Shown piece by piece: positions 32,561 to 40,991 of a stretch of DNA of 64,000 bases; position 1 is the stretch's first letter, and every line of letters begins with the position of its first letter. Origin of the DNA: Myxococcota bacterium (GTDB taxonomy: Bacteria > Myxococcota_A > Polyangia > Nannocystales > Nannocystaceae); NCBI GenBank assembly GCA_039028615.1, contig JBCCHT010000014.1:96001-160000 (forward strand). Reading direction: 5' to 3'. The position numbers and the translations under genes were made by a program. The notes under the pieces are model-generated. The model was not told where the DNA came from. It made no database searches and saw nothing but the letters and a program-made list of their open reading frames with translations.

Positions 32561-33112
32561 CTACTCCGCCTTCGAGCCGGCTTCGCCGTGCTGCTCGATG
32601 CTGGCGGCCGCGAGCGCCTTGGCATCGGCCTCGGCCATGCCCAGCGCGACCAGAACTTCGCTGGTCTGCTCGAAGACCCGAGTCTCCTGGAGGTGCCCCA
32701 CCAGCAGCAGGTACGTGGCCACGTGGTGGTGCTCGTACTTGCCCAGCAGCATCTGCGCCCCTTCGCGCAGCTTCTCGGGGGGGTTGGTCTCGCAGAAGTC
32801 CTCGTCGGTCTCGCCGTTGCGATGCTCGACCTCGAGGAAGTCGAGAAAATCGACGAGCATCTCTCGGTGGTGGCGCATGAGCCACTCGATGAGCAGGGCG
32901 AGGGCCAGCTGCCCGTTGGCTCCCGCGAACTCCCTGTCGAAGCGCTTACGCCAGACCTTCAGTCGGGCGGCCCTGGTGTAGGCGGTCTTGGGCACGCTGC
33001 TGGAAACGCCGCCCGCCTTGAGCACGGAGCGAACCTCCTTCGCGGACAGCTCGCCGTAGTAGGCGTCGATGTGTTCGTTTCCCAGGTGCTGGCAGATCTC
33101 GATCGGCGTCAC
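32561..33112 (-). CDS. conserved hypothetical protein
   Basis: GTG with GAGGA SD; MLVDFLDFLEVEH..GE motif; first gene of a three-gene unit. Confidence 0.75.
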   Translation of the reverse strand: MTPIEICQHLGNEHIDAYYGELSAKEVRSVLKAGGVSSSVPKTAYTRAARLKVWRKRFDREFAGANGQLALALLIEWLMRHHREMLVDFLDFLEVEHRNGETDEDFCETNPPEKLREGAQMLLGKYEHHHVATYLLLVGHLQETRVFEQTSEVLVALGMAEADAKALAAASIEQHGEAGSKAE

Positions 33113-33258: not shown

Positions 33259-35088
33259 CTACCGGAAGCGGACGTGAATGTGGTCCTGGTGCGGTGGCCA
33301 CGAGCCGCCGCTGCCGTACGCACCGGAGCCCGAGCCATCGCCGATGAACTTGCCCGCAGGCGCCTGAATGTCGGCCCGTGTGGCCGGCCCCGGGCCCCAG
33401 CTCGCCTTCCAGCCGGGCACCGAGCCACCGGTGCCGGCCGCCACCACCGAGTCCCATGCGGCCTGGGCCGCGGTCACGGCATCGCTGCGCAGCCGCCGGG
33501 CGCCGTGCCAGACCACCGCCGACAACAGGCCATGCGTCGCGGCGCAGTACGCCAGCATGTTGACCCAGATCGCCTTGACCCGATCGTTGTCGATGCCCGT
33601 CAGCCGAGTCATGCCCGAGGTGTTGTACGCCGGCCGGGCGGCGGTGGGATCGGGCTCGCCCATGCGGTCGAAGACCACGTTGCCCGAGCTGACCTCCGTC
33701 CAGTAGCCCCGAGCGTAGTTGCTACCGGCCGCAGGCGCCTCGACGCCGTAGATGTCGACGTCGACCCCGCGCTCGTGAGAGCCGTGATCGGTGATGTCCT
33801 CGCCCACGATGTGGCTGATGTCGCCGATGCCGACCTGCTCACCGCTGCGCTCGAGACAGAAGGCGGCCAGGCCCTGCAACCACTGGATGGTGGCTTCCTT
33901 GCCCCACTGCCGATGAAAGCTGGCCTCGAAGTAGCGGCGCTTGAACAGCCGAAAGTCGGTATTCGGGGTGGCCTCGATGGCGATGTTCTTCCAGACGTCG
34001 GTCCCGATGATGGCCTCGACCCGACGGGTGCTCTCGCGGCCGAAGTGCACCTCGCGATCGTCGTTGTTGTTGCGCAGCCCCACGAAGCTGACGCTGGCCG
34101 CGGGGGACTGGGTGGGCAGGGCCTGCACGGACGCCGACGCCCGCGCGCCCTGACTGCCGAGCGAGCGCAGGTCCTTGCCCCACAGCCCGGCCAGCTCCAC
34201 CACGCGAATGCCGGCCCGCGACAGCGAATCGAGGTGCCCGGCGTCTCCGGTCGGGTGCAGGTTCTGGTGGGTGCCCACGCAGTTCGAGGGCGTGTTGCGG
34301 CACAGGCCGCTGGCGGACTGGCTCTCGCTGCTGCGCGTCCAGGTGTGACGCATCGCGTAGGTGACCGCGTCGTGCAGCATGACCTCGTCGCGATTGGTGC
34401 AGCGCAGGCGCTCGCGATCGGCCTGGATCTGCGCGTAGGTCTGACCGTCGTCGTAGGTGGCGGACGCGGTGGTGAGCACGGGAGCGTCATGCCGCGCGGG
34501 GGTGATGGGACTGTTGGGGGTCAGCCCCGCCACCGCCCGGAAGAAGCACAAGTGGTGATAGCGGGTCTGCGCCGGATCGATGCGCACGAAGTAGACGATG
34601 TGGCTGTTGAGCGTGGTGCCCGACGGCCGCAAGTGCAGCAGGATGTCGATCATCGGGTGCCCGGCCGGCGTCACCGTGGTGTAGGGCACCCGCGCGAGCA
34701 GGTAGTACTCGCCCTCGACCAGCTTGACCTCCTTGACGACCGACGGAGTCACGCTGGTGTCGACGAGCGTGAGCAGCTCGGGGTTGAAGTCGGTATGCGG
34801 GAAGCAGTGGGAACCCGGGCCGCCCGACGAGCCGCGCGCGGTGGGGCATGCCGTGCCCGCCCAGGCGGTGGCGACCTGGGCCGGATCGCTGACGGCGGTC
34901 GACAGCACCTTGACCGCGAAGCCAGGGCGCACGCCCTGGCTGTTTCGCTGCACGGTGGGGCCCGGATAGGTGTCGTAGACGCCGGCCAAGATCGACAGGT
35001 TCGTCAGCGACGAGTGGTTGATCCCGGTGGTGCGGAAGAAGCTCGTGACGAGCGCGGGGAGCTGCGGGTCGATGGAAATCTGTGACAT
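33259..35088 (-). CDS. unknown N-terminal domain fused to MepA-like (LAS) murein endopeptidase domain
   Basis: RQWG, VGIGDIS, HGSHERGVDVD, C-terminal HQDHIHVR; no signal peptide seen. Confidence 0.75.
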   Translation of the reverse strand: MSQISIDPQLPALVTSFFRTTGINHSSLTNLSILAGVYDTYPGPTVQRNSQGVRPGFAVKVLSTAVSDPAQVATAWAGTACPTARGSSGGPGSHCFPHTDFNPELLTLVDTSVTPSVVKEVKLVEGEYYLLARVPYTTVTPAGHPMIDILLHLRPSGTTLNSHIVYFVRIDPAQTRYHHLCFFRAVAGLTPNSPITPARHDAPVLTTASATYDDGQTYAQIQADRERLRCTNRDEVMLHDAVTYAMRHTWTRSSESQSASGLCRNTPSNCVGTHQNLHPTGDAGHLDSLSRAGIRVVELAGLWGKDLRSLGSQGARASASVQALPTQSPAASVSFVGLRNNNDDREVHFGRESTRRVEAIIGTDVWKNIAIEATPNTDFRLFKRRYFEASFHRQWGKEATIQWLQGLAAFCLERSGEQVGIGDISHIVGEDITDHGSHERGVDVDIYGVEAPAAGSNYARGYWTEVSSGNVVFDRMGEPDPTAARPAYNTSGMTRLTGIDNDRVKAIWVNMLAYCAATHGLLSAVVWHGARRLRSDAVTAAQAAWDSVVAAGTGGSVPGWKASWGPGPATRADIQAPAGKFIGDGSGSGAYGSGGSWPPHQDHIHVRFR

Positions 35089-35092
35089 GGCC

Positions 35093-37543
35093 TCAGGTGA
35101 AATCGGGGTGCAGCAACAACGCTTGGTTGTTCGTGGTGATCGGTCCGACTGGGGTCGCGCCGTCGCGGCGAATCCAGGTCACGGTGTAGCGGTACTCGGT
35201 GCCACCGCGGGTCTTCAGGGGCACCCGGATCTTCACCGGGTCGGGCTGCGGCGCGGTCCAGATGTGCTGAACCGGTGCCTCGAAGCCCGCCGCCGCCTCG
35301 GGGACCTCGAGCGTGAGCCGAGCGGCCACGATGCCCTCCGCCGCAAAGTCGTCCACCAACATGATCGCCTCCAGATCGAGCAGCCCCGCGAACAGATCGC
35401 CCAATAGCAGCATCCGCTGCGAGGTCTCCTTCCACTCGCCCTCGGCCACCGTACCGTCCTTGAACATGGAGGTCGCTCGGTAGTGGAAGACGGGCTCCTC
35501 CCCCGCATCGAGCCGGTTGACGCGCCAGTGGGCCCGCGGCTCGGCCGTGCTCAGCTCGAACTTCTCTTCGAGGGTGACGTCGCCTCGCTGGCACCGAAGC
35601 TCGACCATGACGCGCTCGTGGCGATCGAGCGGGTCCACCATCTGCACGTCGATGCGGGCCATCCCCGCAGGCACCCCGTTGAGGATCTCGAGGCCAGCCC
35701 CGTGCCGAGGCTGCGAGCGCACGGCGTTGCGCGTGCCGTCGGCGTAGTGCCAGGTCGTCTCCACGTGCCACTCGTCGGTGCCCTCGGGCCCCGGGCGGAT
35801 GGGCACGACGGCCGACTCGTGCTCGGCGTCGATGGTCACCGCGCGGCGCGTCTGCATGCCCGAGTCGGCCGCGACGGCGTCATAGACCACCTCGCACTCC
35901 ACCCGATCCACCAGGTCCCAGTCGACCAGGCCCACCGTGACCCGAGCCAAGAACATGGGGAAGTACTCGCGCGGGGAGACGTGGACGAAGTAGCTGCCGA
36001 GCGGGCGCCACTCCGATCGCATGGAAGTCGCAGGGTCGCCCAGCGCGACCTTCGTATCCAAGTTCAGCACCACCTGGAGCTCGACCTCCCGGCTGCGCTG
36101 GTGGTCGGTGGCAAACTCGTAGGCGCCCCCCTGCCCTTCGCCGTCGAGCACGACCTCGGTCATGTGCAGCGGCCGCGACCCGTCGGGCTGCTCGCCGTAG
36201 CGGAGCTTGGCCACCATCGACACGATGCCCAGCGGGCCGAACTCCACCGAGGTCGCCACCTCGCCGCGAACCGTGCTGAAGAACGCGTCGGCCAGGTCGA
36301 TGAACTGCACCAGGCCTTCGGTGTCCGTGTCCCGCGTCAGCAGAGCCAGCGTGCCCTGCGGGGCGATGCTGCGGAGCACGGCCGAGGCCTGCTTGGTCTC
36401 GTAGGTCACCCGTCGCAGCTCGCTCTGATCGAGCTGCCGCAGCAGGTAGCCGGCTTGGGGCCGCCCCGCCTGGTTCCAGCGCTCGACCGCCGTCAGCGGC
36501 CGCTCCCCCGCCGCTGGAGCCGGCTCGGGCTCGGAGGCGGGTGCCGGTTGCGGGGCAGCCACCGCCACCCCGCCCAGCCCACCGCTGGCCTCCGAGGTCC
36601 CGCTGAGCACGGCGTCGGACGTATCGGCCATGACCGCGGCCGTCAGCGGCGAGGTGAAGCCTGCCGTGTTCTCGGTGGCCTCTTCGGTGGGATCGTAGAC
36701 CGTCAACGTCCCCCGATCGGCGGCGATGGCCTCGCCCGGCTTGAGGCTCGGCGAGAACATCGAGCCCGACGCCAGGTCCCGCGCCAGCTGCTCGAGCCGC
36801 GTGCGCTCGGTGGCCTGGTCCTCGGGGCTCATGCCCACGAAGTCCTCCTGCTCGATCACGATGGCCTCCTCGCGCATCAACGACTCGAACTCGCGATCGA
36901 GATCGGCCTTGAACACCAGCGTGTTGGAGGTGAAGCGGTTTCGCAGGTGGCGATAGGTCTGCTCGAAATCGATGGTGATGTTGGCCCGGTACGCGGGCAT
37001 CATGCCGCGGAACTGGAGATCGTAGACCACGGAGACCGGGGTGGCTCCACTCTTGGTCAGTGCCGCCGACATCAGGCTCGCCCCCGCCATGCTCAGCTGC
37101 ATGGAGAAGGTGGCCCGGTTGTCCCCGTACAGCGCGGGGCGAGAGGAGCCGATGATCTTCTCGACGAAGCGGCCCGTGTTCGCGCCGTCGGCGTCTCCGC
37201 CGCTCTGCTCCCCCAGCGTCACGATGCGCACGCTGCCGTTTTCCAGCGGCAGCGGGGCGAGGATGACGTCGGCGGCCCCGCCCGTGGACAGCTCGTCCCG
37301 GATGCGCTGCTTGGTCTCCTCGGGCACCCCCAAGTCGACGGTGAGGTCCAAGAAGCCGCCGCCCGAAGCCCGCGACCCCGCCACCAGGGCATCGCGATAG
37401 ACGATGAGCTTGAGCGCCAGGCGGCCGCCCTCGTCACGGGCGATGCGAGGGGCGGCCGGGCAATAGTAGTAGCGCCGAGGATCACCGTGATCGCGGTACA
37501 AGAGCACGCGGTGAAGCTCTCGGGGTTCGTCGAGAGAAAGCAT
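35093..37543 (-). CDS. 816-aa uncharacterised multi-domain protein
   Basis: ATG 37543 with GGAG SD; N-terminal DHGDPRRYYYCP..GGGFLDLTVDLG; Pro/Ala linker; repeated beta-rich C-terminal modules. Confidence 0.75.
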   Translation of the reverse strand: MLSLDEPRELHRVLLYRDHGDPRRYYYCPAAPRIARDEGGRLALKLIVYRDALVAGSRASGGGFLDLTVDLGVPEETKQRIRDELSTGGAADVILAPLPLENGSVRIVTLGEQSGGDADGANTGRFVEKIIGSSRPALYGDNRATFSMQLSMAGASLMSAALTKSGATPVSVVYDLQFRGMMPAYRANITIDFEQTYRHLRNRFTSNTLVFKADLDREFESLMREEAIVIEQEDFVGMSPEDQATERTRLEQLARDLASGSMFSPSLKPGEAIAADRGTLTVYDPTEEATENTAGFTSPLTAAVMADTSDAVLSGTSEASGGLGGVAVAAPQPAPASEPEPAPAAGERPLTAVERWNQAGRPQAGYLLRQLDQSELRRVTYETKQASAVLRSIAPQGTLALLTRDTDTEGLVQFIDLADAFFSTVRGEVATSVEFGPLGIVSMVAKLRYGEQPDGSRPLHMTEVVLDGEGQGGAYEFATDHQRSREVELQVVLNLDTKVALGDPATSMRSEWRPLGSYFVHVSPREYFPMFLARVTVGLVDWDLVDRVECEVVYDAVAADSGMQTRRAVTIDAEHESAVVPIRPGPEGTDEWHVETTWHYADGTRNAVRSQPRHGAGLEILNGVPAGMARIDVQMVDPLDRHERVMVELRCQRGDVTLEEKFELSTAEPRAHWRVNRLDAGEEPVFHYRATSMFKDGTVAEGEWKETSQRMLLLGDLFAGLLDLEAIMLVDDFAAEGIVAARLTLEVPEAAAGFEAPVQHIWTAPQPDPVKIRVPLKTRGGTEYRYTVTWIRRDGATPVGPITTNNQALLLHPDFT

Positions 37544-37758
37544 GGGGGCTCCGAGCTTTGGGCGGCAACCGAAGTCGCGCGCAGGCGGGGTAGCTTCAGG
37601 TTCGCAGGCGCATCCGTCGGACTCAAGGCCTCGGGAGGCACAGCCGCACGGAATCGCGTTCACGTGCGGCCCCGTTCGTCGCCACGGCCCCGCCGCCCGG
37701 AGAAACGCTCGGGGTCACTTCGATTTTCGGTGCGCGGGCCGTGGTGCGGCCGGCCGCC

Positions 37759-38631
37759 CTACCCGGCCGCGTTGGCGACGTACTCGGTGTACGCGACATG
37801 CAGCCGTCGCGTCATCGGGCCCGCCGTGCCGTCACCGACCTTCGTCCCGTCGAGCGTGGTCACGGGCATGATCCCGCGCACCGAGCTGGTCAGGAACACC
37901 TCGTCGGCGGCCCGCAGATCGTCGGGCATCAGCGTGGTCTCTTCCACGGGCGCGCCCGTGGTGCTCGCCAGCTCGCACACCACCTGCCGCGTGATGCCGG
38001 GCAGCAACCCCGTGCGCAGGTGCGGCGTCTGGAGCTTGCCTTCGCGCACGATGAACACGTTGCTCGTCGCCCCCTCCGAGACCGCGCCTTCGGGGTTGCA
38101 CATGATCGCGTCGTCGCCCCCGCGCGCGAACGCCTGTCGCAGGGCGAGGATGTTGGTCAGGTAGTTGCCCGACTTGATGGTCGGGTCGAGCGAGGTCCCG
38201 GCGTTCTTGGTGATCCCCACGATCACCGCCGACAAGCCCTTTTCGTACGCGTCGTCCTTGGGCAGCTCGAGCGGCTTGACCAGGATCACGAGCAGCGGGT
38301 CTTCGGACACGCGCGGATCCAGTGCCACCGGCCCCGACCCGCGCGTCACCATCATCCGCACGTAGCTCTCGGTGTTGCCGGACGCCTCATGGGTGCGCGC
38401 GATCGACTCGGAGAGCATCTGGTCGGAGAACGGAATCGCCAGGCCGATGCCGTCGCCGCTCCGCCGCAGCCGCTGCAGGTGCCGCGACAATTCCAGCGGC
38501 CTGCCCCCGGCCGTACGCATGGTCTCGTACACGCTGTCGCCGTACAAAAAGCCGCGATCGAACACGCTGATCTTGGCCTCGTGAGGGTCGAGGGGCTCGG
38601 GCTGGGTGGACAGGAAGACCTTGGTCGTCAT
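37759..38631 (-). CDS. class IV PLP aminotransferase (IlvE/PabC-like)
   Basis: DRGFLYGDSVYET, HLQRL, KSGNY (PLP Lys), EGATSN, LPGITR, DEVFLTSS. Confidence 0.92.
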   Translation of the reverse strand: MTTKVFLSTQPEPLDPHEAKISVFDRGFLYGDSVYETMRTAGGRPLELSRHLQRLRRSGDGIGLAIPFSDQMLSESIARTHEASGNTESYVRMMVTRGSGPVALDPRVSEDPLLVILVKPLELPKDDAYEKGLSAVIVGITKNAGTSLDPTIKSGNYLTNILALRQAFARGGDDAIMCNPEGAVSEGATSNVFIVREGKLQTPHLRTGLLPGITRQVVCELASTTGAPVEETTLMPDDLRAADEVFLTSSVRGIMPVTTLDGTKVGDGTAGPMTRRLHVAYTEYVANAAG

Positions 38632-38686
38632 GGCGATCGAAGCGTCCATGCTTCGGTTACCAGAGCCCGGCCCGGCAGGCCAGACC

Positions 38687-39442: not shown

Positions 39443-39548
39443 GCGGCAAGTTCCTCAGCACGGGTAATACCCGCAACGGCGGGCACTATACTAATGGCTT
39501 GCCGCTTGTCCTACATCACCCGTAATGTAGGTCCACGGAATGGGACGG

Positions 39549-40991
39549 ATGAAGACGAAATTGACCCTTGGAGGGGCCGTGGGGGCGGCACTTCTCCTGG
39601 CGAGCCCTGCCCTGCAGGCGGAGGAACCCACGCCTTCGGACGGGCTTTCACCGGTCGACCACACCGACCACCACCATCGGCCGGCCGAATACGACGACCC
39701 GGACTACGCGGTGCCGCCCGTCTCGGGCGAGGCCGCCGAGTACCCGCTGGCCGTGGGCTTCACGCCCGCGCACTCGTCGAACTTCACCAACGGGGGCATC
39801 AACTCGTACGACTACGTCGTCGTGCACACGATGCAGGGCTACTACGGGGGCAGCATCTCGTGGTTCCAGAACCCCGACGCCAACGTCTCCGCGCACTACG
39901 TGATGCGCTCGGAGGACGGCGAAGTCACCCAGATGGTGCGCAACGACGACCGCGCCTGGCACGTGGGCGGCTCCAACTCGCAGGCGCTGGGCATCGAGCA
40001 CGAGGGCTTCATCGACGATGCCAGCTGGTACACGTGGGAGACCTACCTGAGCTCGGCCCGGCTCGCCCGCTGGCTGTGCGAAGAGTTCGAGATCCCCGTC
40101 GATCGCGATCACATCGTGGGGCATGTGGAGCTGCCCGCCCAGTCGCATACCGATCCGGGGCCGCTGTGGGATTGGGACATGTACATGGCGCTCATCCGCG
40201 ATGTCGTGCCCGAGGGTGAGATTCACGGGGTCGTGGTCGACGACACCCTCGCCTGCGAGCTGACGGCCACCGAGGACACGTGGATCAAGACCACCCTCGA
40301 GAACTCGGCCGACCTCAGCGACGCCGAGCGCTGCCTGGTCCCGGCCGGCACCGTCGTTGGGGCGCTGCATCGCAGCGACGACATGATCGGCCACGCCCGA
40401 CTGCACTTCGACGCCGAGGACACGCCCTGCGACGGTGCGCTCGCGACCGAGGGCTTCGCGTTCCTCAGCCACTACGACGGGGCCTGCTCGCCCGCCGACA
40501 TGGCGGCCGTGGGGGCGTGGGTCAGCGTGGACGGTGGAGATCCGATCGACGTCGATGCCGAGGGCCGGTTCGTGGTCTCCGGGGTCGCTCCGGGCGAGCA
40601 CAGCCTCGAGATCGGCGCCGACGGGTACTCGTCCCAAAGCGGCTCGGTCGACGTGGACGTCTATCCGGGCGCCCGGGTGGTGATCTCCTTGGACCCCGTG
40701 CCGGGGGGTGCCGACAGCGAGGGCGACGGCAATCCGGACCCCGACTCGGGGACCGGCGGCGAGCCTCCGCCCGGGGGTACGGGGGGCGAAGATGGCCCAG
40801 AACCCGAGCCTACGAGCGGTGGAACGGCGGCGGACGATGACGGAGGCGGCGACGATCGGGCCCTACCGCCCGGCTTCGGCGAGGACGACGGCGAGGGCTG
40901 CGGGTGCTCCGAAAACGGCCGCCCGGCTCGTTTGGCCTGGCTGCTGCCGCTTCTCCTCGTCGGTTTGCGTCGGCGGGCTTCGCGAAAATAA
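39549..40991 (+). CDS. N-acetylmuramoyl-L-alanine amidase (Amidase_2) with MYXO-CTERM anchor
   Basis: Signal peptide; VVVHT, SAHYV, AWHVG, GIEHEG, IVGH, HTDPG; C-terminal GCGC..LAWLLPLLLVGLRRR. Confidence 0.9.
   Translation: MKTKLTLGGAVGAALLLASPALQAEEPTPSDGLSPVDHTDHHHRPAEYDDPDYAVPPVSGEAAEYPLAVGFTPAHSSNFTNGGINSYDYVVVHTMQGYYGGSISWFQNPDANVSAHYVMRSEDGEVTQMVRNDDRAWHVGGSNSQALGIEHEGFIDDASWYTWETYLSSARLARWLCEEFEIPVDRDHIVGHVELPAQSHTDPGPLWDWDMYMALIRDVVPEGEIHGVVVDDTLACELTATEDTWIKTTLENSADLSDAERCLVPAGTVVGALHRSDDMIGHARLHFDAEDTPCDGALATEGFAFLSHYDGACSPADMAAVGAWVSVDGGDPIDVDAEGRFVVSGVAPGEHSLEIGADGYSSQSGSVDVDVYPGARVVISLDPVPGGADSEGDGNPDPDSGTGGEPPPGGTGGEDGPEPEPTSGGTAADDDGGGDDRALPPGFGEDDGEGCGCSENGRPARLAWLLPLLLVGLRRRASRK

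Follow-up and report, generated by a model that had tools for sequence, protein, structure and literature searches.

Two adjacent genes lie on the minus strand of a 64,000-nucleotide stretch (the window) of contig JBCCHT010000014.1 from a Myxococcota bacterium of the Nannocystaceae. Gene 1 (P0001) and gene 2 (P0002) are co-oriented, with four bases (TGA-GGCC-ATG) between their open reading frames (ORFs); this layout and the sequence motifs quoted in a preliminary description were all recovered in place. Sequence comparison identifies the pair as an orphan module within a larger system of several paralogues, a relationship which that description had missed. The best reading is a Sec-independent carrier–cargo assembly with interchangeable enzymes, for which we infer partner binding, a pore, export and antibacterial action.

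Relative to the same-genus genomes G046 and G050, the pair has been inserted: in both of them, a class IV aminotransferase gene directly precedes a 183-amino-acid (aa) gene. This empty site, found in 2/5 same-genus genomes (two others are arranged otherwise and one is cut off), bears out the earlier proposal of insertion between housekeeping-type genes. The 183-aa gene is not the immunity gene of the cassette, because it is present at the empty site in these relatives. The ATG at 37543 is assigned as the gene 1 start, since M1 is almost invariant in family alignments; an in-frame GTG lies upstream at 37663. GC content at third codon positions is 0.91 in both genes and 0.91–0.93 in their neighbours, indicating similar codon bias within this high-GC, 12.3-Mb genome. 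A signal-bearing Amidase_2 protein is encoded 2 kb from the pair (window 39540–40991, plus strand), with a C-terminal sorting tail, presumably of the myxobacterial type; no evidence ties it to the pair.

Coordinates of the gene pair, its domains and its flanking genes (window positions)
Feature	Positions	Strand	Description
Gene 1 (P0001)	35093..37543	-	816 aa; member of the "core" clade of an unnamed multi-paralogue family; candidate subunit of a carrier or channel
Gene 1 N-terminal domain, aa 1–416	36296..37543	-	Ig-like beta-sandwich core, helical insertion, long protruding strands (aa 167–192, 378–393)
Candidate switch segment, aa 193–226	36866..36967	-	One model gives a helix-turn-helix, the other an extended beta-hairpin
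Ala/Pro/Thr linker, aa 280–352	36488..36706	-	Low-complexity, disordered; pLDDT <50
Four FN3/Ig-like beta-sandwich modules, aa 424–527, 529–623, 624–717, 718–816	35096..36274	-	From structure model
Gene 2 (P0002)	33259..35088	-	609 aa; proposed partner/cargo: PN domain and M74-like module
PN domain, aa 1–190	34519..35088	-	Conserved partner N-domain; proposed docking domain
Mobile C-terminal module, aa 224–609	33262..34419	-	Cys/His-rich subdomain and M74-like LAS zinc peptidase
LAS motif 1, HGSHERGVDVD	33754..33786	-	H435/H438/D445 invariant in 7/7 homologues; H438 and D445 predicted zinc ligands
LAS motif 2, HQDHIH	33274..33291	-	H600/H603/H605; H605 predicted zinc ligand
Class IV aminotransferase	37759..38649	-	Upstream flank, outside the system; Pfam PF01063, E 4e-59; marks the empty site
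183-aa gene	32561..33112	-	Downstream flank; conserved, 82–83% identical copies in G046 and G050

Domains of the two proteins

Searches of Pfam, NCBIfam and PADLOC assigned gene 1 to no family, and no PDB sequence matched it. Fold searches, suggested in the preliminary description, gave no clear match either; the N-domain core aligns as an immunoglobulin (Ig)-type sandwich, and the top structural matches were adhesin and fibronectin repeats. Neither sequence nor fold comparison linked gene 1 to phage-tail parts, and no phage match was found. The three to four beta-rich, Ig-like modules anticipated from the sequence appear in the model as four C-terminal beta-sandwiches. The alternating hydrophobic segment noticed earlier maps to aa 200–216, where the alternation is kept across 96 and 78 homologues. 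It forms one face of an amphipathic segment, aa 193–226, with L209-V210-F211 at its hydrophobic tip (most relatives have LWF there), for which the two modelled states lead us to infer a possible membrane role. In 12 other family members, the linker position is occupied by an inserted domain carrying what we take to be an OmpA-like motif; Pfam OmpA had no match in the three inserts tested. A BFVD search with the gene 1 model (window 36284–37543) returned one viral match below E 0.001, A0A7S7YF07, an uncharacterised 417-aa protein of the amoebal giant virus Medusavirus stheno T3 (E 3.5e-6, 18% identity, TM 0.23), a possible gene 1 relative.

The first 330 aa or so of gene 2, initially listed as unknown sequence, in fact comprise the conserved partner N-domain (PN) and the start of the C-terminal module. 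PN has no Pfam or PDB match. A profile built from 21 sequences of other genomes finds gene 2 at E 1.5e-9 among 46,167 host ORFs and also recovers four other host PN genes; in alignment, gene 2 carries a compact PN that lacks the helical insertion of S8-bearing relatives. The module at aa 224–609 is considered mobile because it is fused to four unrelated N-termini (P0230–P0233, 48–58% identical over the module). In three of these four proteins, acidic repeats come first and apparent hydrolase or peptidase domains next, which suggests another polymorphic family.

The intact LAS motif set reported for gene 2 is present, and Pfam M74 (PF03411) matches aa 390–459 (E 2.4e-8; 34.3 bits against a gathering cut-off of 25), spanning only profile positions 29–100 of 240. 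The score against the MepA equivalog (NCBIfam PRK09429) was 32.5 bits, below its cut-off of 272. The zinc-ligand roles of H438, D445 and H605, and the H-x6-D spacing, are assigned by analogy with MepA. An HXH motif is given for related M23/LAS enzymes in excerpts of PMC8269130. The same motif pattern recurs in 16 other host M74-family ORFs, and the genome has 17 M74-family matches in all, an unusually large set and all above the Pfam cut-off. Ahead of the peptidase domain, C230, C263, C270, H274 and H278 (plus H285) are invariant (aa 230–278, window 34255–34401) and possibly form a second metal site. Gene 2 is a probable cell-wall peptidase, and cleavage of peptidoglycan peptides is quite likely.

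Neither protein shows an N-terminal hydrophobic stretch, Tat motif or lipobox, in agreement with the preliminary description, as judged by a hydropathy heuristic rather than SignalP. The two proteins score 0.2 and 1.65, versus 2.2–2.7 for three apparently signal-bearing proteins of the window; 3/225 gene 1 homologues exceed 2.0, and the conserved domain of the family starts at residue 1. The accompanying argument that M74 enzymes normally carry Sec signals proved weaker than stated: M74 is fused to STAND and HEAT domains in Atlas clusters, and several host M74 ORFs lack a hydrophobic N-terminus at their called starts.

A multi-paralogue family and its linked partner

The gene 1 family comprises 1,133 representatives at 50% identity (E ≤0.001); at least 77 full-length relatives of gene 1, besides gene 1 itself, have 35–72% identity. 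Titled loci come from Myxococcota, Acidobacteriota, Cyanobacteria, Actinomycetota, Planctomycetes, Verrucomicrobia, Nitrospirales and Proteobacteria. An N-domain tree (185 domains from 248 sequences, the remainder being non-family or having too little N-domain) splits the family into subfamilies and assigns gene 1 to one "core" clade, which has 61 sequences and a support of 0.987. Arrays mostly contain one paralogue from each of several subfamilies; annotated plasmid arrays hold about seven, every one labelled "hypothetical protein", and named records with arrays include Leptolyngbya sp. CCNP1308 (L014), Paracoccus NZ_CP102356.1 and Pararhizobium NZ_CP119567.1. The host genome has 18 family members. 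Its non-core paralogues lie mainly on contigs C4 and C2, and its four core genes are dispersed over C14, C30, C35 and C6, each near a different PN partner.

Tabulating the neighbours of gene 1 homologues, as had been proposed, uncovered a recurring PN partner with variable enzymes. Among metagenome core loci with downstream DNA, PN comes next in 14/16. The PN profile used for this count came solely from GTDB loci; nine metagenome core loci that were truncated or fragmentary were set aside, and some of the entries are nearly identical duplicates, in one case of GTDB locus L002. Among GTDB core loci with downstream DNA PN follows in 24/26, a count that is not independent, the PN profile having been built from those loci (L007 was dropped as truncated). 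Of 73 genomes in the order, PN occurs in six, each of which also has a core gene; a seventh carries non-core paralogues alone, without PN, and 66 have neither among the matches listed. In 40 core–PN pairs, the identities of the two proteins are correlated (rho 0.65; at most 0.32 after shuffling), a pattern indicating co-inheritance, not binding.

Behind PN, the C-terminus is an S8 subtilase in 19/22 partners tested; the other forms are S8 with PG_binding_1, Amidase_2, M74, PN alone and unknown sequence, and the C6 partner has an OmpA match below threshold. S8 partners retain their catalytic triad wherever the gene is complete. Muramidase/lysozyme and Tae4/PG-binding genes occur near PN-only loci. 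The nearest core relatives of gene 1 are also the nearest PN relatives of gene 2 and include C30 (PN only) and L001 (PN with S8); these relatives carry S8 or nothing, and the C-terminus behind PN has therefore been swapped. A conserved N-domain with exchangeable C-terminal enzymes, as in polymorphic toxins, is thus found among the PN partners. The carrier-plus-variable-cargo logic of the preliminary description was accordingly upheld, a core clade being tied to a PN partner with an exchangeable enzyme. Its label of a wall-lytic effector system was overstated: wall hydrolases do occur, as a minority, and S8 predominates.

Further genes accompany the family. Mutually homologous genes of 110–187 aa stand beside S8 partners (L002:18838–19317, L013:12414–12746, L074, L082, L085, L087, L089); weak I9 inhibitor matches (E 0.003 and 0.04) in 2/4 tested are consistent with a possible trans-acting propeptide or inhibitor. 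In the host, a PLAT-repeat metallopeptidase lies between the core and PN genes of C30 (G000:C30:38711–40612), a hemopexin-repeat protein near the C6 module (G000:C6:40185–41690), and a 636-aa protein after the orphan PN of C8 (G000:C8:272378–274288). A second, unrelated partner family of about 510–590 aa without Pfam match (L029:7840–9378, L061:18222–19988, L028) adjoins non-core paralogues in arrays lacking PN. A divergently oriented 535–566-aa gene (L060:13444–15051, with equivalents in L023, L025 and L026), also without Pfam match, has a long, Ser/Thr-rich, alternating C-terminal region that recalls a beta-pore stem. More divergent array proteins of 830–1090 aa that fall under the profile threshold (G000:C4:115981–118785, L060:3580–6093, L011:15201–17801, L028:16209–19490) look like further gene 1 relatives. 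On the Paracoccus plasmid (L062, NZ_CP102356.1 119012–144864), paralogues surround a phospholipase D-like gene and are followed by tyrosinase and trypsin genes; this array sits downstream of trypsin, EAD1 and ATP-binding genes, and no PN was found in it.

Proposed mechanism and alternatives

We favour, at about even chances, the view that the pair is an orphan carrier–cargo module of a larger unnamed system, delivering an enzyme to membrane or wall. PN would dock the enzyme onto the core subunit; core and non-core paralogues (the latter from C4 and C2) would co-assemble into an oligomer through their long N-domain strands; the aa 193–226 segment would refold into a membrane-inserting beta-hairpin; and the assembly would carry the enzyme, itself without a signal peptide, to peptidoglycan, the target cell most probably being prey or a competitor. 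By our estimate, a physical partnership of the two proteins is likely, and the balance tips slightly towards a hetero-oligomer of paralogues; a membrane pore or translocation step is more tentative, with the balance leaning against it. Rather unlikely in its entirety is the most explicit version, a new Sec-independent delivery machine in which 6–10 paralogous single-hairpin beta-pore subunits with a novel architecture would form a hetero-oligomeric ring or tube, and dispersed orphan core–cargo modules would load proteases and wall hydrolases through PN, for use against prey or competitors by myxobacteria, cyanobacteria, actinobacteria, acidobacteria and others.

Several observations weigh against delivery by such a carrier. 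No immunity gene adjoins the pair, as the preliminary description had remarked, both flanks being housekeeping-type and present at the empty site. Linked genes co-vary by shared descent alone, and the commonest partner, the S8 subtilase, could be a processing enzyme rather than cargo. Some core genes lack PN (L022 and the broken L027 among GTDB loci, L090 and L091 among metagenome loci), some PN genes have no nearby gene 1 relative (one on host contig C8, three in G047), and the PN–M74 layout occurs in only 3/7 full-length gene 2 matches. At 16 residues, the stretch with conserved alternation is short and has charged helices on both sides, and the long strands modelled by AlphaFold may serve as contacts within an oligomer instead of spanning a membrane. 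The host also has components of other machines that could export gene 2: a VipB match for a type VI secretion system (T6SS) and two Pvc16_N matches for an extracellular contractile injection system (eCIS).

On that last account, gene 2 would be a T6SS or eCIS effector with PN as its loading signal, and gene 1 co-exported or a mere neighbour. T6SS commonly carry wall amidases and peptidases. We nevertheless regard this account as improbable, given that PN tracks core genes across genomes and that no T6SS or eCIS structural gene appeared among the part of the neighbours that was scanned or annotated. Less remote, although still unlikely, is self-lysis or defence: the paralogues would form a protease-activated, holin- or gasdermin-like pore in the producer's own inner membrane, PN enzymes would trigger or finish lysis of an infected or sacrificed cell, and no export would be needed. 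The lack of signal peptides in all parts and of an immunity gene at the pair fits this account, as do the intact S8 triads, the weak I9-like genes adjoining some S8 partners and the patchy distribution (7/73 genomes of the order). The EAD1, trypsin and ATPase genes adjoining the Paracoccus array are of the conflict-gene kind described in excerpts of PMC7159879, but an EAD1 neighbourhood occurs in only 1/2 annotated plasmid arrays. PADLOC 2.0, whose library dates from 2023, gave no match for six gene 1 family proteins or gene 2, the C35 partner drawing generic subtilase matches only; phage matches are likewise missing, and four outward-type Ig modules and 6–10 distinct paralogues seem too many for a suicide pore.

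A non-pore scaffold is similarly unlikely. Here the paralogues would assemble into a filament, a cage or a lattice at the surface or in the matrix, set free through lysis or vesicles; PN-anchored hydrolases displayed on it would digest prey or biomass in cellulosome-like fashion. Five Ig-type domains per chain and the adhesin and fibronectin matches agree with such a lattice, the partner enzymes are largely digestive (S8, with M64 and M10/M12-like enzymes nearby), and most members lack a transmembrane helix pattern (16/225 pass the threshold). It leaves unexplained, however, the conserved alternating hairpin, its aromatic tip and the two modelled states, and export would still need an explanation. 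The MACPF/CDC-like pore-former first proposed for gene 1 is highly improbable, even as a divergent member, and this assignment is not supported. One helix-to-hairpin candidate and multi-paralogue, protease-linked operons do recall two-component CDC-like toxins (CDCLs). The MACPF signature is Y/W-G-T/S-H-x-GG, and its G-T/S-H motif occurs in 0/226 family proteins. The CDC/CDCL motif is F/Y-F/Y-Xn-YGR in excerpts of PMC7527733; YGR is found within the first 420 aa of 2/226 and is absent from P0001. MACPF/CDC proteins, as portrayed in excerpts of PMC11952106, have at their core a twisted sheet, on which two helical bundles turn into hairpins, whereas gene 1 has one candidate hairpin and an N-domain core that aligns as an Ig-type sandwich.

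Relation to known systems and significance

The layout of the proposed carrier–cargo system resembles T6SS orphan vgrG/PAAR–effector islands, with a main cluster, dispersed carrier–cargo modules, differing enzymes that include wall hydrolases, and no Sec signals; it differs in having no phage-tail sequence or fold match and no immunity gene. With MepA/M74 enzymes gene 2 shares the HxxHxxGxD-x-D and HxxHxH motifs, and it departs from MepA in its longer inter-motif spacing, extra Cys/His subdomain, PN fusion and lack of a signal peptide. Several paralogous subunits, possible proteolytic activation, a candidate helix-to-beta-hairpin switch and appended beta-sandwich domains are features in common with CDCL toxins and the MACPF membrane attack complex (excerpts of PMC7527733 and PMC11952106); in contrast, the gene 1 system has neither family motif nor signal peptide, and combines 6–10 paralogues with a dedicated enzyme partner. 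Gram-positive S8-PTS likewise tie an S8 peptidase to a polymorphic cassette with a conserved N-domain and variable C-terminal enzyme; in those systems the toxin bears a signal peptide and a BetaH domain, immunity genes are present, and S8 is a separate processor (abstract of PMC9424270). Here, by contrast, S8 itself occupies the variable position after PN, and the gene 1 family is the constant part. The EAD1/trypsin/NucA multi-peptidase conflict systems of multicellular bacteria in PMC7159879 have a similar host range, S8 and trypsin peptidases and peptidoglycan-attacking effectors, and genes of this kind adjoin the Paracoccus array; the main-text excerpts of that paper describe neither the gene 1 family nor PN.

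Full-text searches of the main texts of open-access papers returned analogues only (S8-PTS, CDCLs and EAD1 conflict systems), with no description of the gene 1 family or PN. We regard the system as new in its parts and layout, and this locus as a rare M74 variant of it. It represents a large multi-phylum family without a Pfam, NCBIfam or PADLOC model or a close solved fold, whose arrays follow a stereotyped plan of several paralogues, a dedicated docking-type domain and interchangeable enzymes. A self-lysis system or a scaffold would still be an undescribed machine. If the assembly is a pore or translocon, it would constitute a new route of protein export or killing and a candidate for unexplained contact killing or wall lysis by predatory and multicellular bacteria, with the two-gene module as the smallest testable unit of the system.

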